In this document: piece by piece, positions 12,449 through 60,497 of the stretch | Numbering within the stretch: position 1 is the first letter of the stretch | How the letters are laid out: every line of letters starts with the position of its first letter | Assembly (NCBI GenBank): GCA_049287025.1 | Contig: JBAQFA010000009.1 | Location: 24,802-88,801 of the forward strand | Reading direction: 5' to 3' | Source of the DNA: Candidatus Magasanikiibacteriota bacterium | Lineage (GTDB): Bacteria; Patescibacteriota; Patescibacteriia; Magasanikbacterales; UBA922 | DNA: 64,000 bases | The notes under the pieces: generated by a model | Seen by the model: only the letters and a program-made list of their open reading frames with translations | Told to the model about the DNA's origin: nothing | Databases searched by the model: none | Position numbers and translations under genes: made by a program

Positions 12449-12574
12449 TTAACACTTTTTAAATCGTAAACTTGACTTATCATATAAAATATAGTATAAA
12501 TGTATGTCCGATAGACTTGTTGTCTGTCGTTTTGGTATATAAGGCAACTTTGCTTTGTTGTTGTGTGTGCTTGA

Positions 12575-13588
12575 GTGAACAACCATAATCCTTGGATGGG
12601 AGGTGAGACAGGGGAAATGGCAAAGGATCTTTCGGAGAGAAAATTTCGAAGCACCGTGCGGTATGTGCGACGTCTATTGGGGGGTGGGACTGGTATTGTG
12701 ACTGCTCAACAGCTTCAGAAGGCTGGAAAACGAGCTCGCGGTCCTTTCTTTGACCCCAGAGACCATGGTCTGGTTCGTCCGTTCTTGGAGCGTGGAGCCG
12801 AAGAAGGACTCTGGGTGCTTGAGAACGGCGGTGGTCGGGCTGTCGTACCTGATGGTGTGTGGGAACAGTGGGATAGTCGTGGCGAGAGACGGCGTGAGGA
12901 ACGTCAGTCACAAGTTACGGCTCAAGCAGGAACCCGGCCAGCTTCAGTGCTGGCATCACTAGAGGAGGTCTCTATGACCGACGGTACGAAGAAGGGGGTG
13001 GGCGTATCCCCGAAAAATCCTATCTGGGTTTGGCTTCGGGCCAAGAAGGGTAGGTTGGGAGAGCTCATCGAGCTGTTCCAGGGGGTCCATGATGGTGCTC
13101 CGGTTCTCGCCAAGAAGGGTGGGGCTTTGAGTTTCCATTTTGCCCGCCCGCACCTAGTTCGGGGCCTGCAGAAGCTCGGGATGGAGCAGATCGACGATGG
13201 GTCAAAGATCCTGGCCACGGTCTTCTCCTACCTCGCCACGCCTGAGCAGGGGGTATTCGAGCGTGTGGGTTCTGGTGGGTACCCCCGCTACAAGCTCGGG
13301 CCGAAAGGGCAGAAGCTCTTGACCGAGGTCAGGAGCAGGGGCTCTGAGCCCATGCCACCGCCCGTTCCGTCCACGTCACCGACCGCTGCCCCCAGCCCGG
13401 GTGACCCGTTCGCCGAGGAGGAGGCCGCTCTCGTGGCCAAGCTCGAGGCGGTCCGTGCCAAACGCCGGCGCTTCATCGTGGTCGAGGACCTCGTGGTCAA
13501 GGCCATGAAGAAGGCCGGCATCGAGGGGACAGAGCAAGTTGAGTTCCTCAAGGCGCTCGTCAAAAAGCTCGGGGGTTCCTCCGAGTAG
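12575..13588 (+). CDS. GC-rich (about 62% GC) hypothetical protein, apparently horizontally acquired (cassette E)
   Basis: 337-codon open frame in 65% GC DNA is unlikely by chance. The sequence is protein-like (…EAALVAKLEAVRAKRRRFIVVEDLVVKAMKKAGIEG…). Likely start is the ATG at 12617 with RBS gggagg. Confidence 0.5.
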   Translation: MNNHNPWMGGETGEMAKDLSERKFRSTVRYVRRLLGGGTGIVTAQQLQKAGKRARGPFFDPRDHGLVRPFLERGAEEGLWVLENGGGRAVVPDGVWEQWDSRGERRREERQSQVTAQAGTRPASVLASLEEVSMTDGTKKGVGVSPKNPIWVWLRAKKGRLGELIELFQGVHDGAPVLAKKGGALSFHFARPHLVRGLQKLGMEQIDDGSKILATVFSYLATPEQGVFERVGSGGYPRYKLGPKGQKLLTEVRSRGSEPMPPPVPSTSPTAAPSPGDPFAEEEAALVAKLEAVRAKRRRFIVVEDLVVKAMKKAGIEGTEQVEFLKALVKKLGGSSE

Positions 13589-13795
13589 TCAAATCTCTAG
13601 GCAGTCTTGACTGCCTACGACATCGTTCTTTCAACCTGTCCCGTTCGGGACACCAAAGTCAGGGAAGTGAGTATCACTCCACATCGGAGCGTACCTTCCC
13701 TGGCGCTCCATCAAAAGAACATCTCTAGTTAGGTGTTTTTTTGTTTAACATTGATTTTACAGATTTTAAAAAAGATTTTATTTTATAAAAATTAT

Positions 13796-14560
13796 TTATT
13801 TCAAACTGTTCCACAACATCTCCCAAACAAGACGTTGGTTATCAGCATTGGCTTGGTCTTCAATAATGACTAGGATCATACTCTCCCAAGAAACAGTCAT
13901 TACTCGATTGCCATAAATAACAGTGTGACTTTTGAATGATTTACCTTCGGGTAAAAATTTTACTTCACGTAATTCTTCTGTGGCACGTCTAGCTTCTAAA
14001 ATACCGGATTTGGATTTTTCCACAATTATTTTTGCTTTAACCCCTAATGAAATTCGTTCGTTGGTTAATTTTTTATACTCTTCTGGAAAAGTTGTTAATA
14101 GTTTTTCTGATGAACCATATACCAAATTTTCTTTTAGATTTACTTTGTGTCTAATCCTGTCTAGATAAGCATTCCATACATTTTTTCTACCCTCAAAATA
14201 TAATACTTTTGGTTTGTTGGCACCTTTGTTTTGTAAAGCCTCAAGTTCTGGTATTAGATCAGCAAAAAGTTGCTCTTTGTAACGAAGTGAATCCAAAAAT
14301 TTTTCTGGTTCCATGGCCACAAAATATCTTTTTCTGCCTTTGTTAACCACATTCATTAAGCCTTTAAGAATTAATTTTTCTATAATGTCGTATGTAGTTA
14401 CTCTATGTATGCCGGCTTTTTGAGCAATTGTCTGGACTGAAGCATGACCAAGCTCTAAGGTGGCTAAGTAAATTTCGGCCTCTTTGGCATCTAGACCAAA
14501 TTGTTGTAATTGATTAGGTAAAATCATAAAATGTTGTAGGAAAAGTTCTACATTTTTCAT
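13796..14560 (-). CDS. TrmB-family wHTH transcriptional regulator (paralog E)
   Basis: N-terminus EAEIYLATLELGHASVQTIAQKAGIHRVTTYDIIEKLILKGL matches the TrmB HTH. Paralogous to ORFs at 28374, 30255, 31929 and 48975. Confidence 0.7.
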   Translation of the reverse strand: MKNVELFLQHFMILPNQLQQFGLDAKEAEIYLATLELGHASVQTIAQKAGIHRVTTYDIIEKLILKGLMNVVNKGRKRYFVAMEPEKFLDSLRYKEQLFADLIPELEALQNKGANKPKVLYFEGRKNVWNAYLDRIRHKVNLKENLVYGSSEKLLTTFPEEYKKLTNERISLGVKAKIIVEKSKSGILEARRATEELREVKFLPEGKSFKSHTVIYGNRVMTVSWESMILVIIEDQANADNQRLVWEMLWNSLK

Positions 14561-20666: not shown

Positions 20667-21737
20667 ATGAATAATAAAAATATGCCAAAAAAAGAAGAAG
20701 ATATTAAATTAGGGGCGGCTCAGACTGCGATTGACCAAATTAAAGAAAAATATGGTGATGGAGCGATTATGAGATTTAGTGAATCACGCGCTATGGATGT
20801 GCCAGCTGTCTCCACTGGTTCAATCTCTCTTGATATTGCTCTTGGTGTCGGTGGTATGCCTAGAGGTAGAATTATAGAAGTATTTGGTCCAGAAGCCAGT
20901 GGTAAGACTACACTAGCACAACACATTGTATCTGAAGTACAAAAATTGGGGGGAATTGCTGCTTTTGTGGATGCCGAACACGCTCTAGACCCAGATTATG
21001 CTAGAAAGATTGGGGTGGATGTGGATAATTTATTAATTTCCCAACCTGACACTGGTGAACAAGCTCTGGAAATCGTGGAAACATTGGTTCGTTCTAATGC
21101 TGTGGATATTGTGGTGATTGACTCTGTCGCCGCTCTTGTACCAAAAGCAGAAATAGAAGGAGAAATGGGAGACTCACACATGGGTTTACAAGCTCGTTTG
21201 ATGAGTCAAGCTTTGCGCAAGTTGACTGGGATTGTTAGTAAAACAAAAACAATTGTGATTTTTATTAATCAGATCAGACATAAGATTGGTGTGTTTTTTG
21301 GCAATCCAGAAACGACAACTGGTGGTAATGCTCTAAAATTTTATTGTTCTGTACGGGTAGAAGTGCGTCGAGCTGCTCAGATTAAACAAGGTGATAAAAT
21401 TATTGGCAATCGGGTAAAAGTAAAAGTCGTAAAAAATAAAGTAGCCGCTCCATTCCGCACCACTGAATTTGATATCATGTATAATGAAGGCATCTCTCTA
21501 TCTGGAGATTTATTAGATACTGGTGTATTGCACAGAGTGATTAGTAAATCTGGTAATAGTTATGCTTATGGTGAAGAAAAACTTGGTGTTGGTAGAGAAA
21601 AAGCTAAACAATATTTACGAGAAAAGCCAGAATTGATGACAGAGGTTAAAGCCAAGATTTGGGAAGTGGTAAAAGCTGGTGAAGCTCCAGATGAGGAACA
21701 AGGTAATATTACTGATGATGTGAGTGTGGAAGAATAA
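20667..21737 (+). CDS. recA: Recombinase RecA
   Basis: 356 aa; [14 protein letters not shown] Walker A; canonical RecA core. Confidence 0.95.
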
Positions 21738-27658: not shown

Positions 27659-28177
27659 CAATATGAGGGGGTATCTTTACTTTATTAGGAGCTGTAATTG
27701 TAAAAGACCTTTACTATCCACTAAATCACTTTTTATAGTGATTTTTTATTTAGGTTTATATATATTATTGTACGACGCATATATATAGCTTTAATTAGTG
27801 TAATAAAACTAAAATTACTACTTAACTACCTATTTTATCCCCTATTTGTTCTTTGTGGAACAATTTCAGTGAACAGTGGCCAGTATGCAGTATTCATAAA
27901 ATACTAAATTATAAAAAATACGTTAGTTTTATTGTAGACTGAAAATTTGGTGTTGTTGTTCTTGCGATCTGATTTGTTGGGAAGCATATTTATAATTAAT
28001 ATGTTCTATGTGGAACAATTATTTATGGTTTATACACAGATAGTGGCACTTATACACAAAAATATCCACTTTTGTGGATATTTGTATAGGATATTGTAGA
28101 CAATAATACAAAATACAATATACACGGAGCAAAATACAAAATCTATGTTGTTGTTTGTATATTGTATTTTGTTTTTG

Positions 28178-28248
28178 TGGACCTAGGCAGAATCGAACTG
28201 CCGTCTCAGCAATGCGAATGCTATATATTACCACTATACTATAGGCCC
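28178..28248 (-). tRNA. tRNA-Ala (anticodon CGC)
   Basis: Reverse-strand GGGCCUA acceptor with G3:U70, anticodon loop UUCGCAU, T-arm GGCAGTTCGATTCTGCC. Confidence 0.7.
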
Positions 28249-28254
28249 GCTTAG

Positions 28255-28326
28255 TGCCCCCAGCATGAATTGAACACACATCTTGTCCTTAGGACGGACC
28301 TGTTCTATCCGTTGAACTATGGGGGC
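28255..28326 (-). tRNA. tRNA-Arg (anticodon CCU)
   Basis: Reverse-strand GCCCCCA acceptor, anticodon loop with CCU, T-arm GTGTGTTCAATTCATGC. Confidence 0.6.
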
Positions 28327-28373: not shown

Positions 28374-29123
28374 TTATTTTATCTCTGGGCAATGATCCCA
28401 CATAAATTTAAACCAGGTTTTATAGCTAGTGGCCAGTGGACGACTAATATTTACAAAAATGGTAATATCGTCACTAATCTTTGTTATTCCGGCGCCAGTA
28501 AAAGACACAACATGATCACCAAAAATGTCTACCATTGAAGGCGTAGAATATTCTTTAGGTAGGTATTTGTAAGGTTTACCTACGGCTTTTGGTACATGAG
28601 GAGCTTGTTTTAGTACTTCAAAATCAAATAAATGTTTATATTTAATACCTCGACGATCCGCATCAACTAAAAATTTATCCAAAAAGGTATTGAGTCTTGG
28701 GTCGAACCAGGCTCCCTTGGCGCCAATACAATAAACATCTTCTTTAGTAGATAATACATCACGAAGAAAATTTTTAAATCCTTCCAGACCTTTATATATG
28801 TAGGCAGCCTCTAAAACAGGATGTTTTTGGTATTCGTGCATCAAGTGTGGCATTTCTTTTTCTAGCCTAGTACGTTTTTCATCAACCAGTTCCATTAGCT
28901 TGGCTGGTTCCACTGGTTTAAATAAAGTGTCGCCATGCCCAATAACTTGAAACACTAAACCTTTTTCAATTAAGCGATTCATTGAGTCATAAATATTCCG
29001 GCGATGAATTTTACTTTTTTTTGAAATATTAGAAACCGTAGTTTGTTTTTCTTGTAAAAGTGTTTCGTAAATTTTGGCTTCGTTTATTGACAATCCTAGT
29101 TCTGTTAAAATTTGGCTATACAT
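28374..29123 (-). CDS. TrmB-family wHTH transcriptional regulator (paralog A)
   Basis: N-terminus NEAKIYETLLQEKQTTVSNISKKSKIHRRNIYDSMNRLIEKGLV; C-terminal TrmB-like domain. Confidence 0.7.
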   Translation of the reverse strand: MYSQILTELGLSINEAKIYETLLQEKQTTVSNISKKSKIHRRNIYDSMNRLIEKGLVFQVIGHGDTLFKPVEPAKLMELVDEKRTRLEKEMPHLMHEYQKHPVLEAAYIYKGLEGFKNFLRDVLSTKEDVYCIGAKGAWFDPRLNTFLDKFLVDADRRGIKYKHLFDFEVLKQAPHVPKAVGKPYKYLPKEYSTPSMVDIFGDHVVSFTGAGITKISDDITIFVNISRPLATSYKTWFKFMWDHCPEIK

Positions 29124-29296
29124 AGCAAAAATATATTAAAGTGGTGTGAAGCCACACCACGTGGTGGTATTTGCCACTCTTTATATATTATATATAATGC
29201 CTTGTTACTTTGCAAGCCGCTGCTGTGCATAAAAGCTAGATGGTGAGCGGGTAATAAGGGGTTCTTTGATAAAACAATTTGAGAAGCGAGGGACAA

Positions 29297-29515: not shown

Positions 29516-30103
29516 ATGCGTACAATGTTAGTCGCGTTGCTGTCGCTGGTGCTGTTTTCAAGTATTGCTCAGGCCGAAACCTACAACACCAGGTTGCTCC
29601 TGCACGGTCACAAGACCGTCGGTGAGGGATTCGGAGTCGCGGGTTGGGTGATTGCGCCCAACATCACAAGCGTACCGAACAAGTGGGTAACCCTCGTCGG
29701 CCCGTGCTACGATGGACAGGGGTGGGGTGTAGAATTGTTGGCAGGAGCGGTTGTTTCTGGTGGCGAGAGCAAGTTTCTTGTAGATGTCAGAATAACGTTC
29801 ACTCCAAAATTCTTCGGCATCCCCTTGAACACCTGGCACAACTTCCAGTGGATTCGAACCGGAGGCTCTGGCACGGGTTACTGGTATGGACAGGTTGACT
29901 GGGTGTTGCCACTCGGACTTGGACTTCTCGGTACAGAAACCGAGAACACGTTCAACGTGAGTGGCAATGACTGGTCAGTCGCGCCTCACGTCGTGATCTC
30001 TTTCGGTGATCACTTCGCGCTAGTGTTCGCTCCACAAGCTCATTTCAATGCACGTGGCTACACTGGCACGCAAGCGTGGGTTCGTACGGTCGTGAGTCAC
30101 TAG
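29516..30103 (+). CDS. GC-rich secreted hypothetical protein (cassette A)
   Basis: RBS aaggagg; signal peptide MRTMLVALLSLVLFSSIAQA; about 58% GC versus about 33% background. Confidence 0.6.
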   Translation: MRTMLVALLSLVLFSSIAQAETYNTRLLLHGHKTVGEGFGVAGWVIAPNITSVPNKWVTLVGPCYDGQGWGVELLAGAVVSGGESKFLVDVRITFTPKFFGIPLNTWHNFQWIRTGGSGTGYWYGQVDWVLPLGLGLLGTETENTFNVSGNDWSVAPHVVISFGDHFALVFAPQAHFNARGYTGTQAWVRTVVSH

Positions 30104-30175
30104 TCGTTCTTTTATAGGGGGGAGGACTTACTTGAGACTAGTCATCTCACGTGGACCGGCACGTAAAAATCCGGG

Positions 30176-30235
30176 ATTCTAGTTAGTACTAAGTAGATAT
30201 CAAAAAACCACGCCTCATCGGCGGGTTTTTTGTTT
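30176..30235 (+). repeat. About 60-bp direct repeat (copy 1) containing terminator, 3' of cassette A and abutting TrmB paralog B
   Basis: attctagttagtactaagtagatatcaaaaaaccacgcctcatcggcgggttttttgttt; second copy at 31849-31909. Confidence 0.7.
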
Positions 30236-30254
30236 ACTTTGGGTAATTTATGAT

Positions 30255-31049
30255 TTATTTTTTCTTTTTGGCAAGTTGAGAGAGTGGTACGGCCGTATTC
30301 CAAGCTAGTTCATATAGCGCTTTTAGAATTTTTACCAAAGATGTACTTTCTATCATTACACCAATTTTGTGTGGTTTATGAGTGACGAAGACAATTTTTG
30401 ATTCAAAAATATTAATTTCACCAAAAAAGTCCTCAATTCCTGGTAGTTGATTAGGTTTAAGCCATTTAATATGAGTATAAGTCATTGATCCTTTATAATT
30501 CGTCATCCAAGTTCTAGCTGTAGGTGTATCCAAAGCAATAATACGTTCATGAATTTTACGTTTACTGCGTTCACGATTATAGCCTTCACCCCAAGTTTTG
30601 AATTCCGGCCAACTCCAGCCTTCAAAATCGGCAATAGAAAGAATTTCGGTTTTTGAATCTAAGCTCTCCCAATAAATATTTTTTAAACCCTGGGTACCTT
30701 CTTGATATTTGATAACTGGCTTTTCGGCAAACTTATAAATCGAAAATAATTTTGGTAAAACTTTTTCTACATTTAATAATTTATCTTCCCATTGCTTTTT
30801 TTTGTTTTTAATATGTTGAACCAGACGCCCTGGATTTTCCGAAGTATAAATCATTTTCGATCCTTTGCCAGTCGCGCGATCTACCAAACCATACCAACCT
30901 AACTTTTCCAAAGCATAATAACCAAGCGTTCGGTTGATACCAGCTTTTTTGGTTATCTCGGCTACAGTAGCAGGACCAAGTTCGAGCAAGGCTAAATATA
31001 CTTTGCCTTCGGTTTCATCTAAACCTAATTGACTGATTAAATCTTTCAT
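30255..31049 (-). CDS. TrmB-family wHTH transcriptional regulator (paralog B)
   Basis: GKVYLALLELGPATVAEITKKAGINRTLGYYALEKLGWYGLV; about 50% identical to paralog C. Confidence 0.75.
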   Translation of the reverse strand: MKDLISQLGLDETEGKVYLALLELGPATVAEITKKAGINRTLGYYALEKLGWYGLVDRATGKGSKMIYTSENPGRLVQHIKNKKKQWEDKLLNVEKVLPKLFSIYKFAEKPVIKYQEGTQGLKNIYWESLDSKTEILSIADFEGWSWPEFKTWGEGYNRERSKRKIHERIIALDTPTARTWMTNYKGSMTYTHIKWLKPNQLPGIEDFFGEINIFESKIVFVTHKPHKIGVMIESTSLVKILKALYELAWNTAVPLSQLAKKKK

Positions 31050-31301
31050 GTTTTTATTCTACTATATATTTGGAAATGTGTCAAATCTATTTAACAGAAA
31101 ATTATTTATATAGCAAAATACTTTATAATTAGCCAAATATTAATAATTAACTAATAAAACAATATTGACAGTTATTGTAAAATGTGGAATAATAAGTAGT
31201 TCTAGAATGAAAATTCTGGAACCAAATTGATTGGGAGTGTCTGAACACTCTGTATATATGGTCTGGCGTTCTTTACACACGTGCTAGTTGGAGGGAACAT
31301 C

Positions 31302-31727
31302 ATGAAAAGGTGCATCAAGGCTCCGGGAATTAACGCTTTCAGTGGCGAGGGTGAAGTGGGGAAGTTAGAAGATGTCCCCGGAAAACAAGGTTGCCTTCCA
31401 TTTGATCCTAGTCCGGCCGTAGGGGGTTGGATGAAGGACGACAATTGTAAAGTGGAGGCACCACCAGAGGGGTGCACGCTCGAAGTGCCCGAAACGATCC
31501 TATGCCCCAATGGAAAAAACATCCCAGCTGGAAAGTACAAGGTGGGAAAACTGCCTGATGACAAGATTCTGCATCGCTATCATGATCACGTTCTGCCCCT
31601 CACCGATGAGAAGGGGGTCACCCGGCATTATTGCATTGAAAGTTCCGGTAGGCATGTCGACTGGTCGGGATGCGTCTGCATCTTGATTCGTGTGGAGACG
31701 CGCGAAGAGCGACTGCTGATTCAGTAG
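31302..31727 (+). CDS. GC-rich Cys-rich small protein (cassette B)
   Basis: RBS ggaggga before ATG 31302 (track start 31281); 10 Cys in 141 aa. Confidence 0.55.
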   Translation: MKRCIKAPGINAFSGEGEVGKLEDVPGKQGCLPFDPSPAVGGWMKDDNCKVEAPPEGCTLEVPETILCPNGKNIPAGKYKVGKLPDDKILHRYHDHVLPLTDEKGVTRHYCIESSGRHVDWSGCVCILIRVETREERLLIQ

Positions 31728-31747
31728 CCATAAATTAAGGGGGGCAA

Positions 31748-31818
31748 GACGTAGTCTGGATTCGTCAACCAGTCCACCTGCCGGAGAGGTAGGCGTAGGC
31801 CGGCGCGTGAGCTCGGCA
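31748..31818 (+). repeat. Cassette 3' element: AGACGTARTCTGRATTCGTCAAYCA ... core GCGTAGGCCGGCGCGTGAGCTCGGCA
   Basis: Core at 31793-31818; 21 nt after the stop of cassette B ORF; four more copies in the window. Confidence 0.8.
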
Positions 31819-31848
31819 CCGTGCGCCCGACACATTCAAAACGGGCAA

Positions 31849-31909
31849 ATTCTAGTTAGTACTAAGTAGATAACAAAAAACCACGCCCTATCAGCGCGGT
31901 TTTTTGTTT
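31849..31909 (+). repeat. About 60-bp direct repeat (copy 2) with terminator, abutting TrmB paralog C
   Basis: aattctagttagtactaagtagataacaaaaaaccacgccctatcagcgcggttttttgttt. Confidence 0.7.
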
Positions 31910-31928
31910 GTTTTGAATAATTTATAAA

Positions 31929-32732
31929 TTATTTTTTCTTTTTACTAGTTTTAGCAAGCGGTGTAGCTGTAATCCACGCCAGTTCAAAAATCGCTTTTAA
32001 AATATTAGATAAAGCCGTGCTTTCTATAATTATGCCAATAGGGATTGGTTTCTTGAATAAAGCCATCATTACTTTATTATCATAAATATTAATTTCACCA
32101 CCTAAATCTTTGATAGTTGGTACTTGTTCGGGTTTTATCCAGCGATAATTAATATATTTTTTTGATCCTTGATAATGTTTCATCCAATCTCTTCCTTCGG
32201 GTGTATCTAAAACCAAAACGCGTTCAGAAATTTTTCTTTTACTACGTTCGCGGGTATATTCTTTGCCCCATTTAAAAAGATTAAACTCTGGTGTATACCA
32301 AGCTTGCAAATCCAAGACTGATAAAATTTCTGATTTGGCTTCTAAAGTTTCCCAATAAATATTTTTGGCACCCTCAACACCTTCTTGAAATCTAACGCTG
32401 GGTTTTTCGGCCACGGTATAGAGTAAATAAAAATCTGGCAATTGTGATTCTAATTCTTTTTCTTTTCTTTCCCAAGTATTAATTTTTGATTTTACAAAAT
32501 GTTTTAAATTTTTGGGATCTTTGGCTACAAATTGAATGCGTTTCTTTTGTCCAGAAGAACGATTGACTAGGCCAAACCAACCAAGTTTTTCTAGGGCATG
32601 ATAACAAAGGGTGTGACCAATGCCAGCTTTGCGGGCAATGGCGCTGGCGCCAGAAGGTCCAAGTTGTAAAAGGGCAATATAGACTTTGGCTTCTGTTTCT
32701 TCAAAGCCAATGCTTTTAAGAATTTCTAACAT
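31929..32732 (-). CDS. TrmB-family wHTH transcriptional regulator (paralog C)
   Basis: AKVYIALLQLGPSGASAIARKAGIGHTLCYHALEKLGWFGLV; ends KKKK like paralog B. Confidence 0.75.
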   Translation of the reverse strand: MLEILKSIGFEETEAKVYIALLQLGPSGASAIARKAGIGHTLCYHALEKLGWFGLVNRSSGQKKRIQFVAKDPKNLKHFVKSKINTWERKEKELESQLPDFYLLYTVAEKPSVRFQEGVEGAKNIYWETLEAKSEILSVLDLQAWYTPEFNLFKWGKEYTRERSKRKISERVLVLDTPEGRDWMKHYQGSKKYINYRWIKPEQVPTIKDLGGEINIYDNKVMMALFKKPIPIGIIIESTALSNILKAIFELAWITATPLAKTSKKKK

Positions 32733-32963
32733 AGAATTTTATTTTAGAATTTATTAGATATATTTATTATAACACAAAAATAAATTTATTTCAATATCAA
32801 ATTGAAAATAATTACTAGATTGTAAATTTTTATTTAAAATAAGCCAAAAATGGTTTATTTATTTTAAATTGAGTATTGACATACTCCATAATCTAATGCA
32901 TAATTACTTGTTCTGACGATCGAGGATTGGCCTTGAGAGTTGGACGCTAACTGGGAGGGCATC

Positions 32964-33311
32964 ATGGCCGAAGAGCACGAGGTACGGTGTGATAACTGCG
33001 CCCACCACCACGTAGGAAGCGGGGGTTGTTTCGGCAAAGTAGAGAGCAGGTTCCCCATGTACGATTTTCATAGAGGAGTAAAATACTGCATGTGGGGGGG
33101 GACCCCCAGCCGAATTGTGACCTTTTCTAGATTGAAGGGGTGCCCGCTGGGTGTGGAGTTTGTGCCACTCCGCTGGTGTGGTACCTGTGGCAACTTGGTC
33201 CAAACGGACCAAGGGTGTGCTCACCGGTTGGAGGGTTGCGAGGACCCCAGCTACAGGTGCTGGAAGATTCACCCCGACCTCAAGGAGGGTATGAGACAAC
33301 AGTACCTCTAG
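32964..33311 (+). CDS. GC-rich Cys/His-rich small protein (cassette C1), putative zinc-binding
   Basis: sigma70-like promoter ttgaca-17-cataat at 32876-32904; RBS gggaggg; CDNCAHHH...CxxC motifs. Confidence 0.55.
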   Translation: MAEEHEVRCDNCAHHHVGSGGCFGKVESRFPMYDFHRGVKYCMWGGTPSRIVTFSRLKGCPLGVEFVPLRWCGTCGNLVQTDQGCAHRLEGCEDPSYRCWKIHPDLKEGMRQQYL

Positions 33312-33335
33312 ACTACCCACCTATGGGTTAAACAG

Positions 33336-33444
33336 GCGTAGGCCGACGCGTGAGCTCGGCATTCCATTTTTGTCCAAAATATTATTTTTTGCATAAAGAT
33401 GGAGGCGCTCTTTAAAAACAAACAATCCGCACTGGTGGTGTTGG
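33336..33444 (+). repeat. Cassette 3' core motif (33336-33361) plus about 85-bp conserved leader repeat
   Basis: gcgtaggccgacgcgtgagctcggca + attccatttttgt...ataaagatgg...cgctctttaaaaacaaacaa...cactggtggtgttggttg; near-identical to 34186-34292. Confidence 0.8.
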
Positions 33445-33480
33445 TTGAAGAGATATAGTTCTGACTTAACGGAGGCTAGA

Positions 33481-34149
33481 ATGGGATACGACCCAAACCA
33501 AATGGCCCAAAGGTATTTGAGGGTCGACTGGGCCGACGTGAAGGGCTATGCCGCTTACGCGGTAGAGTCCACGTTCGGGGACCAAGTACCACCACCCATA
33601 AAAAGGAGACTCGAGGTATTGGACGGTATAAGGGACAAGGAAGGTCCCGAAGCCGCCTGTCTCGAGGCAGCAAGGATCGAATGTGAATGCCAAGTCGTTC
33701 AGGAGAAAAGAACTGAACGACGGCAGTGGAGAACGGGAGACGACCCATACAAATATGGGTCTTCGTTCTCTTCGAAGTTTGTCATCATAGATTATAATGG
33801 TGAAAAAAGATTCTACATCGCTCATAATTGGCATATGCAGGCCGTTTTCGTTTTCGCCAAAATTCTGGTGGATAGAAATAAAAAAGTCGATTTTCACGTT
33901 CTGGGTGGGGGGTGGTTCCGTGCTAATCATCCCCTAACTGTTGGCGGTTTTAGCGGTGATTTTAGCTCGTTCAAAATCTCTGACTTGAGTGAGGCGTTGG
34001 GTGGGCTTGAATTCACCGACAAAGATCCCGGTGATTGGCGCACGAATTCCATGCGTGCCACCCATATTGATTGGGCTTTTATCGAAAAAGCCCGTGACTC
34101 CTCTGAGAAATACAGGGAGGTATGGAAACGGATCTTTGAGGAGGAATAA
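33481..34149 (+). CDS. GC-rich hypothetical protein (cassette C2)
   Basis: RBS ggaggct + ATG 33481 (track used TTG 33445); 222 aa; about 50% GC. Confidence 0.55.
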   Translation: MGYDPNQMAQRYLRVDWADVKGYAAYAVESTFGDQVPPPIKRRLEVLDGIRDKEGPEAACLEAARIECECQVVQEKRTERRQWRTGDDPYKYGSSFSSKFVIIDYNGEKRFYIAHNWHMQAVFVFAKILVDRNKKVDFHVLGGGWFRANHPLTVGGFSGDFSSFKISDLSEALGGLEFTDKDPGDWRTNSMRATHIDWAFIEKARDSSEKYREVWKRIFEEE

Positions 34150-34150
34150 T

Positions 34151-34292
34151 AGACGTAATCTGATTTCGTCAATCAGCGTAGGCCGGCGCGTTAGCTCGGC
34201 ATTCCATCTTTGTATAAAAATAATTTTATATAAAGATGGTTGTCGCTCTTTAAAAACAAACAACTAACACTGGTGGTGTTGGTTGGTGATAT
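34151..34292 (+). repeat. Cassette 3' element (core 34186-34211) plus leader repeat, second copy
   Basis: agacgtaatctgatttcgtcaatca gcgtaggccggcgcgttagctcggca + attccatctttgt...cactggtggtgttggttg. Confidence 0.8.
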
Positions 34293-34339
34293 ATAAAAAG
34301 GACTGGTGGCGGACACAACCCTTGGAGAAGGAGTTGAAA

Positions 34340-34759
34340 ATGAGTACTGTCAAGATACTCATCATCGACGACGGTGATGAGAAAGTCGATCGACTGAAAG
34401 GTTATGATCGACTTGGCCACCTCCATGGTGTGGAGGTGGTACGCCGATGGAATTTTAATTCGGCTCTTAAGGAAGGGCCGTACGCGTTTAATGATTTGGA
34501 GCAAACAAAGTTTGACGTGATTATTTTGGACTTTACACTGCCAATGGACAGATTCGGTCATGAGATCTTGGATAAAATTAGACACAGTCCCAGGTTTATT
34601 ATTAACGAAAGAACGGTAGTAATTGGCATTTCCACAGAGTGGAAACGTCTATTACAATATGATTTCGGTTTGAATCTTGCGATCTACAAGGAGGAAACGA
34701 TGGCTGACGAACTGGAAACAGCCATCAAGTCCTTCGTCGCCACTGGCAAAGTCAAATAA
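34340..34759 (+). CDS. Orphan CheY-like response-regulator receiver domain protein (cassette C3)
   Basis: RBS gagaaggag + ATG 34340. KILIIDDGDE...DVIILDFTLP matches the REC-domain acidic pocket and phospho-acceptor Asp. No output domain. Confidence 0.55.
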   Translation: MSTVKILIIDDGDEKVDRLKGYDRLGHLHGVEVVRRWNFNSALKEGPYAFNDLEQTKFDVIILDFTLPMDRFGHEILDKIRHSPRFIINERTVVIGISTEWKRLLQYDFGLNLAIYKEETMADELETAIKSFVATGKVK

Positions 34760-34780: not shown

Positions 34781-34824
34781 CTTGGGATTTGTCACCCAAC
34801 GTAGGCCGGCGCGTGAGCTCGGCA
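34781..34824 (+). repeat. Cassette 3' element, fourth + strand copy
   Basis: agacgaagcttgggatttgtcacccaa cgtaggccggcgcgtgagctcggca, 22 nt after stop of C3. Confidence 0.75.
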
Positions 34825-35484: not shown

Positions 35485-35799
35485 ATGAGCATTGTTTTTC
35501 TTGATGATGATGTGGAAAATTTTATTTATAGTCTAGAAAATAAAACAAAAGCTAAGGTTTTGCGAACGTTGGATTTGCTAGAAGAGTTTGGTTATAATCT
35601 GGGCATGCCACATACAAAAAAGATTAAAAATAATCTTTTTGAATTGAGAGTATTGGGTAGAAATCAGGTGCGATTATTTTATACATTTTTAAAACCAAAT
35701 ATAATTGTTTTGTGTGGCTTTAGAAAGAAGACTCAGAAAATTCCTAGTCATGAATTGGAGAAAGCCCTGCATAAATTAAAGTTGCTTGACAAGATATAA
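35485..35799 (+). CDS. higB: Type II toxin, RelE/HigB (Gp49-like) family
   Basis: 104 aa; ...ELRVLGRNQVRLFYTFLKPNIIVLCGFRKKTQKIP; immediately upstream of XRE-HTH partner. Confidence 0.6.
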   Translation: MSIVFLDDDVENFIYSLENKTKAKVLRTLDLLEEFGYNLGMPHTKKIKNNLFELRVLGRNQVRLFYTFLKPNIIVLCGFRKKTQKIPSHELEKALHKLKLLDKI

Positions 35800-35822
35800 C
35801 ATATATGTTATATTATAAATGT

Positions 35823-36095
35823 ATGAAAAATTACAATAAAATTAAATCAGAAATATTAAAAGACCCTAAGTTCAAAAAAGTCTATGACGATCTTGAGCCA
35901 GAATTTGAATTGGCTCGGCAAATTATTAAAAAGCGTTTGGAATTAGGTTGGTCTCAGTCAGAATTGGCTAGAAAAATGGGTACCAAGCAGTCGGCTATTG
36001 CCAGGTTGGAGTCTGGCGGATATAATCCAAGTATGGCTTTTTTGCAAAAAACAGTTAAGGCATTAAAGGCCGATTTACAGATAATTATTAGTTAA
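35823..36095 (+). CDS. higA: XRE-family HTH antitoxin (HigA-like)
   Basis: LARQIIKKRLELGWSQSELARKMGTKQSAIARLESG; track start 35805; ATG at 35823 likely. Confidence 0.6.
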   Translation: MKNYNKIKSEILKDPKFKKVYDDLEPEFELARQIIKKRLELGWSQSELARKMGTKQSAIARLESGGYNPSMAFLQKTVKALKADLQIIIS

Positions 36096-37754: not shown

Positions 37755-39149
37755 ATGAAAAAAATATTTTTATATACCTTCATAATTATTGCGCCATTAT
37801 TTTTAACGGGGTGTGTAGGAGATTTACAATCACTGTTGTGTGATTTTTTACCAGATTCTGATCATTGTTTTCAATCGGCCGCGATTCAAGAAGGGCAAGT
37901 AGAAGAATGTGAAAAAGTATCAGGTGAAAATTTTAAAGACACTGGTTCTAATCCACCACGCGACAAATGTTATTTATTAATTGCTGAAAATACGGGCAAT
38001 CTTGATGCTTGTAAACAAATAAAAGGCGGACCAATGTCGTATACTCAAGAGGAATGTATCTTGGGTGCGAGTATAAAGAATGAAGATCCAGCTGGGTGTA
38101 AAATGTTGACTGGTTCTGCGGCGGCACAGTGTAGAAAAGAGCTTGGGGTTAAAATTGATGCTGTCAAAGTAATTGAAGTAGACAAACAAATTGAAGAAAT
38201 AAAAAATTATTTGAAAGATGGTTCGGATCCAGATTTGGAAAAACAACTTAAAGGTTTGGAACAAAGACGCGAAGATATGTTGGGGGTGTTAACCAAGGCC
38301 AATAAGGATGAGTATGAAAAATTATCAGACCCGATTAGTCAAGAAATAATTGGGGACTTTGCCGTGGGTGATATTGACTCAGCGACTAAAAATAAATTAT
38401 TAGAATTTAACAAAAAATTAAAAGATAGTGGGGTGAAAATGAGCACTGAACAATATGAATCTATTCGCGATTATTTGGCTTATGTAAATAATCCAGATAA
38501 TGATATTGAAAATATGGATGGTAGTGGTATGACGAAAGATCGTTGGAATGAAAAAGTGGGGAATGCGGTAGACAAATTAAAATTTTGGAAAACTAATCCC
38601 AGTGAAGCCGAGAAGGGTTGGGATGAACAATTGCGTTTTTATGAAAGAATGCTAGAAAGACAGGCTGCTATAAATCAAGGTATGACAGAGTTGCAGGAAG
38701 ATTTTAATCGTAATATGGGTATGGTGTATGACGCGGCTGGAAATAAAATAGTGGATGTGGCCAAGGATGCTTTTATTGAAAAGTTTTTTGGAGAAATTAC
38801 GGGCAAGACTGTAGGTTGGACAACAATGGTTGTGGGAGAAGCGATTGATACGGTGAAGGCCGAAGCCAAATCAATGGAATTTCGTGGTTTAGCCAGAGCC
38901 TATGATTTGGGCATGGCTGAAGAAGTTGGTAAATTTGGTGGTGATGTAGAAAAAGCTCATGCGGAAGTGGTAAAGAAAATGATGGCTAATCCATATGAAT
39001 ACGAAGATGGCAATCCTTATGCCAAATATGGTAATATTTTGGAAAACAAAGATTGTGATGGATCAAATCCTCATTGTGTGAATAAAGAAGTGTTTTGGAA
39101 AGCTATGAAGAAATCATATAAATATCAACATCAGAGTAGTGGTAGTTAA
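37755..39149 (+). CDS. Lipoprotein, Cys-rich N-terminal region, unknown function
   Basis: Lipobox LFLTGC; 464 aa; coiled-coil-rich C-terminal half. Confidence 0.6.
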   Translation: MKKIFLYTFIIIAPLFLTGCVGDLQSLLCDFLPDSDHCFQSAAIQEGQVEECEKVSGENFKDTGSNPPRDKCYLLIAENTGNLDACKQIKGGPMSYTQEECILGASIKNEDPAGCKMLTGSAAAQCRKELGVKIDAVKVIEVDKQIEEIKNYLKDGSDPDLEKQLKGLEQRREDMLGVLTKANKDEYEKLSDPISQEIIGDFAVGDIDSATKNKLLEFNKKLKDSGVKMSTEQYESIRDYLAYVNNPDNDIENMDGSGMTKDRWNEKVGNAVDKLKFWKTNPSEAEKGWDEQLRFYERMLERQAAINQGMTELQEDFNRNMGMVYDAAGNKIVDVAKDAFIEKFFGEITGKTVGWTTMVVGEAIDTVKAEAKSMEFRGLARAYDLGMAEEVGKFGGDVEKAHAEVVKKMMANPYEYEDGNPYAKYGNILENKDCDGSNPHCVNKEVFWKAMKKSYKYQHQSSGS

Positions 39150-47596: not shown

Positions 47597-47625
47597 GTAA
47601 ATTTTACGGAAATTAAACAAAAAAT
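47597..47625 (+). repeat. 28-bp direct repeat, left flank of TrmB+cargo module D
   Basis: gtaaattttacggaaattaaacaaaaaat; partner at 49777-49806. Confidence 0.75.
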
Positions 47626-47676
47626 CCCTTCCTAAATGGTTGGGATTTTTTTGTCTCGTTTGTCGACAAGTCGAGA

Positions 47677-47702
47677 TGCCGAGCTCACGCGCCGGCCTAC
47701 GC
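47677..47702 (-). repeat. Cassette 3' core motif, reverse-strand copy after cassette D1
   Basis: Revcomp reads ctatggattaaatag GCGTAGGCCGGCGCGTGAGCTCGGCA; the upstream 15 nt also match the copy at 33321. Confidence 0.8.
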
Positions 47703-47784
47703 CTATTTAATCCATAGATGGAGTGCCACTTTTGAATGTGTGTGGCGCACAGTGAAGAGGTGTGGAACAAGCCGGCCATGTTTA

Positions 47785-48228
47785 TCAGATTTTGAATTCC
47801 TGATAAATCCTGGCCAGCACCTTTGCAGCCGTATGAACTCGTTCCAGGATGTTCGTGAGTGCGTCGGAGAATTCGTGCCACTCCCAGACAGTCTCTTCCC
47901 CGTCACTTTTCAGGTTGTAGCTACCCATCATGGCGGCAAACACTTGGTAGGCGTTAACGCTTCGGCCTGTTTTTTCCCCACGCAGTATACTGCCGTGTAT
48001 GTGTTGCGCGTAGTTTTCAAGCCACTCAACCAAATCTTCGTTCCCCTCTATTTTCTGTAGAAGCTGGTCTGCGATTTGATCAACGCTTTCCTTACAACAC
48101 TCTTCATCTGCGTCAAGTCGTAAGTACAGGCAAACGATGGCGATCAGATTGGGTGGAAGGTCATAGCATCCCTCAGGATAAGTCCTGAGCATAGGCTCGC
48201 CTTCTCCCCAGCTAGAAAGGTAGAGCAT
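47785..48228 (-). CDS. GC-rich hypothetical protein (cassette D1)
   Basis: RBS aaggaggtga + ATG at 48228; 147 aa acidic protein; about 55% GC. Confidence 0.55.
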   Translation of the reverse strand: MLYLSSWGEGEPMLRTYPEGCYDLPPNLIAIVCLYLRLDADEECCKESVDQIADQLLQKIEGNEDLVEWLENYAQHIHGSILRGEKTGRSVNAYQVFAAMMGSYNLKSDGEETVWEWHEFSDALTNILERVHTAAKVLARIYQEFKI

Positions 48229-48256
48229 CACTCACCTCCTTGTTTACAAAGAACGT

Positions 48257-48292
48257 TGTCCAACTTTCGAGGTACATCCTCGATTGTCAGAA
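48257..48292 (-). repeat. 36-bp conserved leader repeat upstream of cassette D1 start
   Basis: gtccaactttcgaggtacatcctcgattgtcagaac; second copy at 48681-48716. Confidence 0.7.
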
Positions 48293-48385
48293 CTTCCTCC
48301 ATCTTTATACAAAAAATATTTTGGACAAAGATGGAAGGCCCGGCGCTTTGTTGACGCGCGGCCGGGCGAAGCGTGGCGGAGTGTG

Positions 48386-48652
48386 TTACTCCTTGGGTGT
48401 GGAGAGGTGGAGAAAGTGGCGGATTTTTTGCCAGAAGATTTTGTTGGCTTCTATTCCGGCTTCCTTTTTCGCTCGAGCCTCCCTGATGCCCTTGTTCCTT
48501 TCGAGGCCACACTGGGGGCAGTAGGACATGTGAGGTAAGAGTTCATTTCCACACAGGCATTGTGGAAGAGCAACTCTCTTTACACCACAATATTGACAGA
48601 ACTCTGAGTATCCCACGTGACTACACATCGGGCACAGCCTACTCTCAAGCAT
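48386..48652 (-). CDS. GC-rich double zinc-ribbon small protein (cassette D2)
   Basis: RBS ggaggaagaa + ATG 48652 (track TTG 48685); CPMCSHVGYSEFCQYCG...CPQCG. Confidence 0.55.
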   Translation of the reverse strand: MLESRLCPMCSHVGYSEFCQYCGVKRVALPQCLCGNELLPHMSYCPQCGLERNKGIREARAKKEAGIEANKIFWQKIRHFLHLSTPKE

Positions 48653-48680
48653 TTCTTCCTCCAGAGTGTAAGGAATTTCG

Positions 48681-48716
48681 TCCAACTTTCGAGGCCCATC
48701 CTCGATCGTCAGAACA
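48681..48716 (-). repeat. 36-bp conserved leader repeat upstream of cassette D2 start
   Basis: gtccaactttcgaggcccatcctcgatcgtcagaac. Confidence 0.7.
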
Positions 48717-48974
48717 AGGAATTGTAGATTATTTATGAGTAATTGTCAAGATTAAGTAGTTCAAAAATGTATATAAAATAGGCTAAAATAAGCTAAATAA
48801 TTATTAACACATATAATTTTGTCGGGATGATTTGACATATATTGTTATATATGTTATATTAGTTATGGTTTAAAACATTATTTTGTTTGCTAAAGTGGTT
48901 AATTGTAGGAAAGATTCACCCTTCGGGTATCTTCGACCTCTCCGCCAGTCGGCGGATCGGAATGAACTAAAAAA

Positions 48975-49763
48975 ATGGAAAAAAATAATTTAGAAAAATT
49001 AATAGATTTGGGTCTACAAGAAAATGAAGCCAAAATATATTTGGCTTTGTTGGAATTGGGAAAAGGCAATGTGACCGAAATTAGTCGGCGCGCAGGATTG
49101 AACCGGACGACGGGTTATGATATTTTGGAACGTCTTGGTTTACATGGTATGGTGAACCGCGCCAGAGTGGGTAGTAAAAAAATTATTTATGTGGCCGAAC
49201 CGCCATCACATTTGCGTCAGTACTTGGAAGACAAAAAACGCGCCATGGAAAGACGGATGGAAGAATTAAATGATTTGTTGCCAGATTTGCAATCACTTTA
49301 TAAAACTGATATTAAACCAGTTATAAAATTTGCCGAAGGGAAAAGTGAAATGCAAAAATTGTATTTGAATGTTTTGGATGCGAAGAGTGAAGTTTATTCA
49401 ATTCTTAATTTAAAAGGTTATGCCGAAGTTTTTGATGAACTGGGTGCTTATCAATCCAAAGAACGACATAAAAAAGGCATAAAAGAAAAAGTTTTGGCTA
49501 TAAAAAATGATACCGCTCTGTGGTGGTATAATAAAACTTATAAAAATAAAACTGCCAAGGATAAAAAGTTAACCGAATATCGCTGGCTAGAAGATGCGGA
49601 AAAGTATTCTACCGCCGGAGAAGTAAATATTTTTGATGATAAAGTAATTGGTGTATTATCCAAACCAAGTGAAAATGTGGCATTTGAAATTCAATCACAG
49701 ACATTTGCGGATTTTTTGAAATTAGTTTTTGAAATGGCGTGGAAGAATAGTGAACAAAAATAA
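48975..49763 (+). CDS. TrmB-family wHTH transcriptional regulator (paralog D)
   Basis: NEAKIYLALLELGKGNVTEISRRAGLNRTTGYDILERLGLHGMV; C-terminal domain like paralogs B/C. Confidence 0.75.
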   Translation: MEKNNLEKLIDLGLQENEAKIYLALLELGKGNVTEISRRAGLNRTTGYDILERLGLHGMVNRARVGSKKIIYVAEPPSHLRQYLEDKKRAMERRMEELNDLLPDLQSLYKTDIKPVIKFAEGKSEMQKLYLNVLDAKSEVYSILNLKGYAEVFDELGAYQSKERHKKGIKEKVLAIKNDTALWWYNKTYKNKTAKDKKLTEYRWLEDAEKYSTAGEVNIFDDKVIGVLSKPSENVAFEIQSQTFADFLKLVFEMAWKNSEQK

Positions 49764-55813: not shown

Positions 55814-56224
55814 ATGATTGATAATCAAACAAAAGAGAAATTCATCGAATTAAGAGCACAAGGAAAAAGTTATAACACAATCTCTAAAGAGATTGGTGTA
55901 AGCAAACCCACACTTATTCAGTGGAGTAGAGAGTTTGTGGACGAAATTTCCAATCTTAAAGCAATAGAATTTGAAGATTTACAAGAAAAGTATTATATAC
56001 ACAAAAGAAAAAGAATAGAAATTTTTGGCACACAACTGGAAGCCATAAAGCAGGAACTTTCTTCAAGAGATCTAAAAACAATTTCAACTGAAAGGCTTTT
56101 GGATTTATTGGCTAAATTTACGACGGTATTGAAAGCAGAAGAAACAACTATAAACTTTACTACAAAAGTCAGTCCCGTTGATGATTATTTAGATCTATCA
56201 GTTGTAAAAAATTGGATTGGATAA
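55814..56224 (+). CDS. HTH-domain protein (transposase/terminase-small-subunit-type HTH), candidate regulator or recombination directionality factor
   Basis: KSYNTISKEIGVSKPTLIQWSREF helix-turn-helix. Confidence 0.5.
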   Translation: MIDNQTKEKFIELRAQGKSYNTISKEIGVSKPTLIQWSREFVDEISNLKAIEFEDLQEKYYIHKRKRIEIFGTQLEAIKQELSSRDLKTISTERLLDLLAKFTTVLKAEETTINFTTKVSPVDDYLDLSVVKNWIG

Positions 56225-56341
56225 AATATTACCAAAACTTTACTATTTTTTGACCGAGATATTCAAAGAAAGTATATATTGCTTTTATCTCGTTTTTATG
56301 ATAATATAGCGGTACTAAACATTCAGTAGACTTATAATTTT

Positions 56342-57085: not shown

Positions 57086-57088
57086 AAT

Positions 57089-58744: not shown

Positions 58745-58804
58745 TGGAAAACAAACAAAAAACCTGCTATATTAATAGTAGGTTTTTTTATTAAAATAAA
58801 TATT

Positions 58805-60442: not shown

Positions 60443-60497
60443 ACCTTCGGCCTCCTGGTCCCAAACCAGGCGCTCTAGCCAACTGAGCTACACCCCG
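60424..60497 (-). tRNA. tRNA-Pro (anticodon UGG)
   Basis: CGGGGUG acceptor, anticodon loop UUUGGGA, T-arm GAAGGTTCAAGTCCTTT. Confidence 0.8.

Follow-up and report, generated by a model that had tools for sequence, protein, structure and literature searches.

The question raised by the locus described here is why a short non-coding sequence should occur almost unchanged at two neighbouring gene boundaries when the genes that adjoin it have long since diverged. The locus lies in chromosomal DNA of a metagenome-assembled genome (MAG) of Candidatus Magasanikiibacteriota, within a stretch of 64,000 nucleotides (contig JBAQFA010000009.1, positions 24,802 to 88,801) that is referred to as the window. 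It is an array of modules, each of which would combine a regulator gene of the TrmB family with a divergent promoter and with GC-rich genes termed cargo, in the order TrmB-A(-)/cargo A(+), TrmB-B(-)/cargo B(+), TrmB-C(-)/cargo C1-C2-C3(+). The repeated sequence, about 60 bp long, would be the junction element of this array. We consider it somewhat probable that it is a bidirectional terminator or insulator which doubles as a homology tract for the gain, loss and shuffling of modules. The components of this reading differ in strength: on the evidence of the sequence a terminator or insulator role is very probable, and a role as a recombination tract that homogenizes and shuffles the modules is given about an even chance.

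Extent of the repeat

An earlier note on this DNA had described a 60-bp direct repeat situated between a GC-rich open reading frame (ORF) and the stop of the next TrmB gene. Both quoted sequences are present in the window and are identical at 56 of 61 aligned columns, and both copies lie between convergent stop codons, copy 1 being 73 nt past the cargo A stop (30103) and 19 nt from the TrmB-B stop (30255), and copy 2 being 121 nt past the cargo B stop (31727) and again 19 nt from the TrmB-C stop (31929). The coordinates of copy 1 (30176-30235) were exact, while copy 2, 62 nt long as quoted, begins at 31848 and not at 31849, an offset of one nucleotide, and ends at 31909 as described. The four substitutions and one indel that separate the copies all fall, with one exception, within the terminator hairpin, and a 23-nt core, TTCTAGTTAGTACTAAGTAGATA, is exact in both (30177-30199 and 31850-31872), with no match in 100 shuffles. 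Raised identity (about 84% over about 97 nt) runs on to the TrmB stops (30171-30269 against 31842-31943). The A-to-B junction is identical in two further assemblies of the same organism (L015 and L016). The earlier note had also asked whether a third, degenerate copy precedes TrmB-A or follows cassette C3; none was found at either place by a mismatch search or by an nhmmer search of the 64-kb window with a two-copy profile, in which only generic terminators with E>1 scored after C3. The end of the array past C3 has the same architecture as the junctions and is not a repeat copy.

A predicted terminator for converging transcripts

Both copies fold as a hairpin followed by a U-tract, in agreement with the earlier proposal that the repeat contains a terminator. 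Copy 1 is made up of A6, the stem CC-A-CGCC/GGCG-GG and T6GTTT, and copy 2 of A6, the stem CC-A-CGC/GCG-C-GG and T6GTTT. The minimum free energy of the + strand fold is -20 to -21 kcal/mol, with z of -4.5 for copy 1 and -5.2 for copy 2; on the - strand the corresponding values are -20.0 kcal/mol (z -5.1) and -24.5 kcal/mol (z -6.0). Where the + strand stem of copy 2 has an A.C mismatch (-20.3 kcal/mol), the RNA of the - strand, that of TrmB, has G.U instead (-24.5 kcal/mol), so the hairpin is no less suited to the TrmB than to the cargo transcript. The tail T6GTTT occurs 19 times in the window where about 0.8 occurrences are expected, about half of them after stable hairpins at gene ends, and it is this genome's usual terminator tail.

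The repeat has every sequence-level feature of a bidirectional intrinsic terminator: a GC hairpin with a U-run and an upstream A-tract, located between convergent stops and folding on both strands. It would halt transcription of the cargo on the + strand as well as that of TrmB, which converges on it from the - strand, and thereby insulate neighbouring modules from each other. It departs from ordinary terminators of this kind in that exact sequence, and not structure alone, is kept across genomes with saturated synonymous divergence, and in that the terminator is fused to a conserved palindrome, termed E3a below, and is homogenized between paralogous junctions. Membership of a known RNA family was considered and rejected, since an Rfam scan of 27-36 kb at E<=5 returned only tRNAs and, at the terminator, sub-threshold matches of leader or sRNA type such as terminators typically give.

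What the units have in common

The earlier note had taken the repeat to define a unit of about 1.67 kb, and to argue for tandem duplication or iterative insertion of modules. The spacing is correct (1673 bp from start to start), but the equal length of the units results mostly from similar gene sizes. When unit is aligned with unit, the number of identities per 30 columns is 23-26 at the junction, about 17-23 in the TrmB coding sequence, and about 10-13, which is background, in the promoter/leader and cargo; in terms of nucleotide identity, the TrmB coding sequences are about 65-70% identical and the promoter/leader and cargo halves about 35-40%. Only the junction and the TrmB gene are therefore homologous between units, and the part of the earlier proposal that envisaged tandem duplication of whole modules does not stand, whereas iterative insertion survives in a modified form, as recombination at the junctions.

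The repeat might nevertheless be the best-preserved piece of an old duplication of the whole 1.67-kb module, comprising TrmB, cargo and terminator, given that the direct repeats are 1673 bp apart and that the TrmB-B and TrmB-C coding sequences are colinear with them at 65-73% nucleotide identity. Apart from the background-level identity of the cargo and promoter halves, and the fact that BLASTP detected no mutual similarity among cargo proteins A, B and C1, the relative ages of the parts are difficult to reconcile with such a relic. TrmB-B and TrmB-C, which are 49% identical in amino acid sequence with saturated synonymous divergence (dS), are old paralogs, so a junction that is 92% identical cannot have survived from the same event as a neutral remnant, and its history must be either more recent or more tightly constrained than that of the adjoining genes. 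In addition, a genome separated by a dS of about 1 already has orthologs of both paralogs, with their order reversed, which makes the duplication ancient and requires the junction similarity to be younger. Recent tandem duplication of whole modules is excluded on this sequence evidence, and survival of the repeat as a duplication relic, which is largely refuted by the same comparisons, is very improbable.

Junctions in related genomes

Syntenic arrays in other Magasanikbacteria were found by one scan each of genome and metagenome collections with E2, a motif of cargo 3' ends, and by protein-based look-ups; the synonymous divergence of the related genomes, expressed as the proportion of differing synonymous sites (pS), is 0.54-0.62. 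In UBA11710 (L001, L008 and L009) the array consists of TrmB-1, a C-type module (79% amino acid identity to window C) and a B-type module (96% to window B), so that the B and C orthologs are swapped in order (1-C'-B', compared with A-B-C in the window). Its two cargo-to-TrmB junctions are identical at 127 of 129 nt, identity falling to about 60% exactly at the TrmB stop, while the flanking TrmB proteins are only 55% identical. Each is composed of E2, a different palindrome E3b (TCTCCTTTTTCGCGAAAGAAAGAGC), a terminator of the window type and a TrmB flank, and at both junctions the terminator matches copy 2 at 33 of 34 positions, despite a dS of about 1 (pS 0.54) between the two genomes. In L019, a more distant JGI contig that retains the rmuC/DUF4325 synteny and whose TrmB proteins are 53-56% identical to those of window B and C, both junctions carry CTTCTTGTTAGTACTAAGAAGA(T/C)A followed by A6-hairpin-T6GTTT, as part of a common 132-nt repeat (about 88% identical) which reaches into the cargo 3' untranslated region (UTR) and ends at the T-run; the flanking TrmB proteins are 57% identical.

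Three further sets of loci show other arrangements. L018 has B then C, as in the window, with a junction in which E2 and a palindrome like E3b are followed by a third type of terminator hairpin. In L010 (GW2011_GWC2), E3a, an extra hairpin and a perfect-stem version of the terminator close an unrelated, AT-rich + strand ORF of 315 amino acids at the array end, with no TrmB gene behind it. In L005-7 a B-type TrmB gene (93% identical) stands alone beside tRNA genes, without these 3' elements.

These loci bear directly on an alternative that the earlier note had itself raised, namely that the repeat is simply the conserved 3' UTR of the TrmB paralogs. Here this is taken to mean the 3' UTR and terminator of the B- and C-type paralogs, maintained by purifying selection and without any role in recombination. 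This explanation accounts for part of the element. Homology is unbroken from the repeat into the TrmB stop and coding sequence, in UBA11710 the terminator accompanies B/C-type TrmB genes along with about 35 nt of their flank (the B- and C-type genes there have the same terminator and 14 nt of flank), and the stem of copy 2 is the better one in the TrmB RNA, as described above. It does not account for the absence of the element from the B-type TrmB of L005-7 and from TrmB-A, -D and -E of the window, for an E3a which lies beyond the terminator of the TrmB transcript and hence outside that RNA, for the E3a and terminator that in L010 follow an ORF not adjacent to TrmB, or for the L019 repeat, which is on the cargo side only; furthermore, genome-specific states common to paralogous junctions need conversion. 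As an explanation of the whole repeat it is unlikely.

In each of the three genomes that have two junctions, the junctions are alike to a degree that goes beyond the flanking genes (in the window, 56 of 61 positions in the core and about 84% over about 97 nt, between TrmB genes whose products are 49% identical), and the variable parts, that is E3a or E3b and the TrmB flank, cluster by genome and not by TrmB ortholog. Such a pattern reads as the signature of gene conversion or crossing-over. It is comparable to the concerted evolution of intergenic spacers, in which non-coding junctions grouped by genome are far more alike within a genome than are the flanking paralogs, except that the converted tract would here be a terminator junction of about 100-130 nt between regulator-cargo modules of a bacterium of the candidate phyla radiation (CPR), and not an rRNA or tRNA spacer or a member of an antigen family.

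The mechanism that we infer is one in which the two copies represent two successive cargo-to-TrmB junctions of the B/C type, kept alike by gene conversion or crossing-over that is presumably RecA-dependent (recA is in the window at 20667-21737). Modules would be gained, lost and reordered at the junction homology tract, either through single-crossover insertion of a circular module or through unequal exchange. A circle made up of TrmB, cargo and junction, on insertion at a resident junction, would leave bracketing direct repeats of the kind present in UBA11710 and in the window, where module B is bracketed by the two copies, and would also give rise to the swapped order; unequal exchange would do likewise.

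The E3a palindrome

The half of the repeat nearest the cargo gene, E3a, is a near-palindrome of about 20 nt, TCTAGTTAGTACTAAGTAGA, with the consensus YTTCTWGTTAGTACTAAGWAGA. Written as TCTA-G-TTA-GTAC-TAA-G-TAGA, it matches its own reverse complement at 16 of 18 positions. Across about 260 kb of related loci, GTTAGTACTAA turns up at five independent sites, in each case shortly before the terminator that closes a + strand array unit; E3a is identical at 21 of 23 positions in L010 and at 20-21 of 23 at both L019 junctions. In L019 a symmetric change from A-T to T-A preserves the palindrome, and in L010 a C-G pair becomes T.G. Since the sequence of the terminator and of E3a is kept where synonymous sites are saturated, it must be either constrained or exchanged between lineages. 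The equivalent position is filled by alternative palindromes, E3a, E3b, E3c and E3d. A stable RNA hairpin was rejected for E3a, E3b and E3c, all of which fold weakly (z about -1).

The most likely candidate roles of E3a are a site for a dimeric DNA-binding protein and a weak 3'-UTR hairpin, and a conserved, symmetric 20-mer would be read more naturally as the former than as an RNA element. In its specific form, this proposal makes E3a an operator or roadblock for a dimeric protein such as a TrmB paralog, which would reinforce insulation or regulate the junction; the repeat would then exist because the site is needed at every junction. The dyad symmetry, the retention of the sequence between genomes separated by a dS of about 1 or more, the symmetric double substitution in L019 together with a conserved central G.G asymmetry, and an RNA hairpin too weak to account for the conservation all agree with an operator. 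The TTAGTACTAA palindrome and its relatives are, however, absent from all of the divergent promoters and from the rest of the window, and the UBA11710 and L018 junctions carry the unrelated palindrome E3b beside near-identical TrmB proteins, so that the specific proposal is not a likely one.

The reverse complement of E3a, taken with the T-run of the terminator, also resembles a sigma-70-type promoter, TTGATA/TTGTTA-16-TAGAAT, antisense to the cargo (30176-30203 and 31849-31876, - strand). That it should be an antisense promoter, TTGATA-16-TAGAAT, which fires into the cargo gene is extremely improbable. The - strand matches are 10 of 12 (30203..30176) and 9 of 12 (31876..31849) and TAGAAT is also the -10 element of the TrmB-B promoter, but the -35 element is not kept in L010, E3b and E3c match poorly by our own reading of their sequences, and false positives are frequent in this AT-rich region, which yields 47 promoter-like matches compared with 25 in shuffles.

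Several points weigh against the account given above of a terminator that doubles as a recombination tract. A simple terminator scan missed both copies, because their stems are bulged or mismatched, and termination at both copies is itself a prediction. E3a taken alone folds weakly (-3.9 kcal/mol, z about -1); it pairs in all 35 cells, but there is only one double change in five sequences, and 53 of 500 shuffles equal it. The longest exact tracts between the window copies, 24 and 14 nt, are marginal for RecA-mediated exchange. Purifying selection alone could explain the similarity of the terminator half, and only the genome-specific E3 and flank parts require conversion. Finally, all of the genomes are MAGs or metagenome contigs, so that misassembly of the module order induced by the repeats is conceivable, although two deposited contigs (L008 and L009, possibly from the same data) share the UBA11710 order and L018, from another organism, repeats the B-then-C order of the window.

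Comparison with known repeat systems

The arrangement of the array invites comparison with integrons, and E3a could on this basis be a site-specific recombination or binding site, attC-like or the core site of a recombinase, by which modules are mobilized as cassettes. As in an integron, an imperfect palindrome comes after each of the variable cargo ORFs, with the alternatives E3a-E3d in the same position, strains differ in array content, and direct repeats lie on either side of the middle module. The resemblance is only superficial, the sequence differing from attC on all three counts examined. A recombinase at the array was sought and rejected: Pfam was searched with 50 ORFs of the window, which included 47 of its 52 non-overlapping ORFs with 90 or more amino acids and all of those from 12.6 to 44.3 kb except for one of 464 amino acids at 37755-39149. 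This gave recA, ftsK and, as the only dedicated recombinase, a large serine recombinase (58805-60442) that is 27 kb away by a tRNA cluster, and detected no tyrosine recombinase or IntI. No GTTRRRY/RYYYAAC pair of R and L core sites occurs in or around E3a, in which GTTAGTA does not fit. The modules have their own regulators and terminators and their own TTGACA-17-TAxAAT promoters in both directions, unlike promoterless cassettes driven from Pc. The boundaries of the repeat also vary between genomes, which fits homologous and not site-specific exchange. A site of this type is accordingly very unlikely.

A second comparison is with the repetitive extragenic palindromic (REP) elements and bacterial interspersed mosaic elements (BIMEs) of enterobacteria, which are located in 3' UTRs, including those between convergent genes, vary in location between strains, and have been proposed to limit read-through and to protect upstream mRNA (bioRxiv 10.64898/2026.03.23.713779). 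E3a is likewise a short imperfect palindrome in the cargo 3' UTR, its length is within their range of about 20-40 nt, and the element would act much as they do, as terminator and stabilizer at once. It differs in that there are only two copies in 64 kb, both in one gene array and thus not dispersed as far as 64 kb shows, and in that it folds weakly and unrelated palindromes interchange at the one position; no REP-associated tyrosine transposase (RAYT) was seen.

An origin from a phage or plasmid was also considered and rejected, the 5.8-kb array having no blastn match in plasmid or phage collections. Four motif scans of viral contigs found nothing, and a fifth, with the hairpin element E1, gave a single match inside an unrelated phage ORF which is taken as chance.

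Significance of the junctions

Considered alone, the repeat is an ordinary terminator. What gives it importance is its behaviour: the retention of its sequence in deeply diverged genomes, the near-identity of its copies within a genome, and a palindrome that changes while keeping its symmetry are traits that would show where exchangeable regulator-cargo modules begin and end in an uncultivated lineage with reduced genomes. A wider interpretation, which is possible but doubtful, is that the repeat is one linker of a recombinase-independent cassette system of Magasanikbacteria, in which rapidly evolving GC-rich orphan genes (GC content at third codon positions, GC3, of 0.5-0.8 compared with about 0.27 for the genome), most of them with their own TrmB, are gained, lost, reordered or refilled by homologous exchange at conserved linkers. 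If this is true, a conserved promoter and a 5'-hairpin leader stand before each orphan and interchangeable 3' elements (E1, E2, E3a-E3d and the terminator) behind it, the fixed hotspots are the interval from the tRNAs to rmuC, the site 3' of the H+-PPase gene and the site beside the PBP1 gene, and E3a is bound by a factor through which the ends of cassettes are marked or insulated. Searches of the literature on TrmB and Magasanikbacteria, on CPR cassettes and on attC yielded nothing relevant, and no description was found of such turnover of accessory genes in this lineage. The repeat provides a testable model for the shuffling of compositionally odd, lineage-specific genes in CPR bacteria that needs no dedicated recombinase, and a signature by which arrays can be searched for, YTTCTWGTTAGTACTAAGWAGA with A6-hairpin-T6GTTT and the E2 motif.

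Features of the array and its surroundings

The window has a GC content of about 34-36% overall, with a few GC-rich islands, and contains dnaA and dnaN at 0.7-3.5 kb. The array is 3' of tRNA-Ala and tRNA-Arg (28177-28326), and past cargo C3 it is followed by an HTH-DUF4325 gene, a Gp49/HTH toxin-antitoxin-like pair and rmuC. The coordinates of its features are collected in Table 1.

Table 1. Positions of the repeat, the array genes and the recurrent elements in the window
Feature	Position	Strand	Description
E1-like hairpin (CCGG..CCGG)	30155-30175	+	Immediately 5' of copy 1; left edge of the repeat, of weak similarity
Repeat copy 1	30176-30235		E3a 30177-30199; predicted bidirectional intrinsic terminator 30202-30235
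Extension of copy 1	30236-30269	-	TrmB-B 3' flank, stop codon and KKKK tail; pairs with 31910-31943
Cargo B 3'-UTR elements	31794-31847	+	5' of copy 2; E2 CGTAGGCCGGCGCGTGAGCTCGGCA 31794-31818, E1 hairpin 31821-31847
Repeat copy 2	31848-31909		E3a 31850-31872; predicted terminator 31875-31909
Extension of copy 2	31910-31943	-	TrmB-C 3' flank, stop codon and KKKK tail
Array end past C3	34800-34884	+	E2, followed by another palindrome, E3b TCTCCTTTTTCGCGAAAGAAAGAGC, and by another terminator hairpin that has the same T6GTTT tail
TrmB-A	28374-29123	-	Distant paralog (22-27% amino acid identity to the others); 3' end adjoins tRNA-Arg, no repeat copy
Cargo A	29516-30103	+	GC 54%, GC3 0.61; signal peptide, predicted small beta-barrel
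TrmB-B	30255-31049	-	PF01978; convergent with cargo A at copy 1
Module B divergent promoters	31056-31193		TTGACA-17-TAGAAT (TrmB-B, -), TTGACA-17-AATAAT (cargo B, +)
Cargo B	31302-31727	+	Cys-rich, 141 amino acids, GC 53%
TrmB-C	31929-32732	-	PF01978; convergent with cargo B at copy 2
GC-rich cargo islands	29516-30103, 31302-31727, 32964-34759, 47785-48652 (-), 12596-13588		Also in L005, L007, L010-L013
E2 sites	31794-31818, 33337-33361, 34177-34201, 34800-34824, 47677-47701 (-)		Also in L001/L008 (three), L002/L003, L004, L018
Conserved 5' leader	32910-32945, 48680-48715 (-), 48258-48293 (-)		Also in L001 (2417-2452), L003, L004, L018 (1783-1816)

TrmB-A, -B and -C match PF01978 with E from 2e-13 to 6e-16 (50-58 bits compared with a gathering cut-off of 25.6). 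Homologs of the TrmB proteins number 451 at E<=1e-20; PF01978 is present in all of the best 120 that have a precomputed Pfam call, and those whose source names an organism are mostly from Patescibacteria/CPR. Pfam domains were not found in most of the cargo proteins, which are near-orphans, the protein of the island at 12.6 kb included; cargo B has one homolog among 5.8 billion proteins. With dN/dS of 0.18-0.34, and dN about 3-30 times that of the adjacent TrmB, the cargo genes are coding and under purifying but faster evolution. Irrespective of the ORF, they have conserved 5' leaders and 3' elements (E1, E2 and E3) in common.

The GC content of the cargo islands is 0.43-0.61 and their GC3 is 0.49-0.81, compared with a GC3 of 0.25-0.30 for TrmB and housekeeping genes. 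Orthologs of cargo A retain the GC bias in four genomes and three chromosomal contexts, so recent transfer does not account for it; its candidate causes include selection acting on mRNA, and also biased gene conversion. Cargo A itself (NCBI locus tag WA057_00190) has homologs in Magasanikbacteria only, in every case divergent from an A-type TrmB gene. It has a signal peptide, and an alignment of 11 sequences gives a predicted small antiparallel beta-barrel (pLDDT 71) whose best PDB matches are outer-membrane porins (for KdgM, TM 0.56/0.62 and E about 1e-2). The model suggests a small porin-like beta-barrel, which would be odd for a CPR bacterium. In the divergent region between TrmB-A and cargo A (29141-29177), two GC palindromes, GTGGTGTGAAGCCACACCAC and GTGGTGGTATTTGCCAC, which are likely operators, overlap the cargo A promoter and are kept in L010 and L011.

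E2, CGTAGGCCGGCGCGTGAGCTCGGCA, is a 25-nt motif without an Rfam match that follows the stops of unrelated cargo ORFs and hardly varies between genomes whose dS is saturated. Its fold is GCCGG-C-GC-GUGA-GC-UCGGC, with one pair that is G.U, A-U or G-C; covariation of this hairpin was rejected, since the pairing is 100% but the changes are one-sided only and not significant. The leader GTTCTGACGATCGAGGATGGGCCTCGAAAGTTGGAC is found at the predicted transcript start of the C-type and D cassettes, as a 5'-terminal stem-loop that in L018 has compensatory changes, TGGAGA..TCTCCG and GTTCTGAC..GTCAGAC; B-type leaders have other hairpins of the same GTTC...GAAC form. The C1-to-C2 (33336-33458) and C2-to-C3 (34176-34296) linkers have in common a direct repeat of about 123 nt (about 85% identical) that contains E2, a strong AT hairpin E3d and the leader CGCTCTTTAAAAACAAACAA..CACTGGTGGTGTTGGTTG, so cassette C2 is also bracketed by direct repeats. 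The E3d hairpin occurs again between D1 and D2 (48296-48341, - strand).

Two further TrmB genes are present in the window. A fourth module, on the opposite strand by the PBP1 gene (47600-49763), has TrmB-D (48975-49763, +) divergent from two GC-rich ORFs that encode a zinc-ribbon protein of 88 amino acids and a protein of 147 amino acids; it ends in an E1-like element, E2, E3c (TCTCGACTTGTCGACAAACGAGA) and a terminator. In the region 12480-14560, an island of 60% GC (12596-13588, +) with probably two ORFs, the second a near-orphan, lies 3' of the H+-PPase gene and is convergent with a fifth TrmB gene (13796-14560, -), which is itself divergent from an NMT1/ABC transporter operon. The terminator region of this island contains TCTAGTTAGG, which is like the first half of E3a, and at the H+-PPase site L002 has a different TrmB and cargo module.

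The large serine recombinase gene (Resolvase, Recombinase and Zn_ribbon_recom domains) ends in or by a tRNA-Pro/Phe/Ala cluster and is preceded by genes for an HTH_23 protein and a zinc-ribbon protein and by ORFs of unknown function; the region 55814-60698 may be an integrated element unrelated to the array. The Gp49 (HigB-like) and HTH_3 pair (35485-36095, between the HTH-DUF4325 gene and rmuC) is absent at the equivalent position in L008 and L010, another difference of presence and absence at this hotspot. At the other end of the array, 5' of the tRNA pair, there are a 32-nt inverted repeat (28105-28175) and two copies of TGTTCT(T/A)TGTGGAACA (27847-27862 and 28002-28017); the latter are GTTC-N6-GAAC dyads that UBA11710 has at the corresponding position, and their GTTC...GAAC form is also that of the cassette 5' hairpins.

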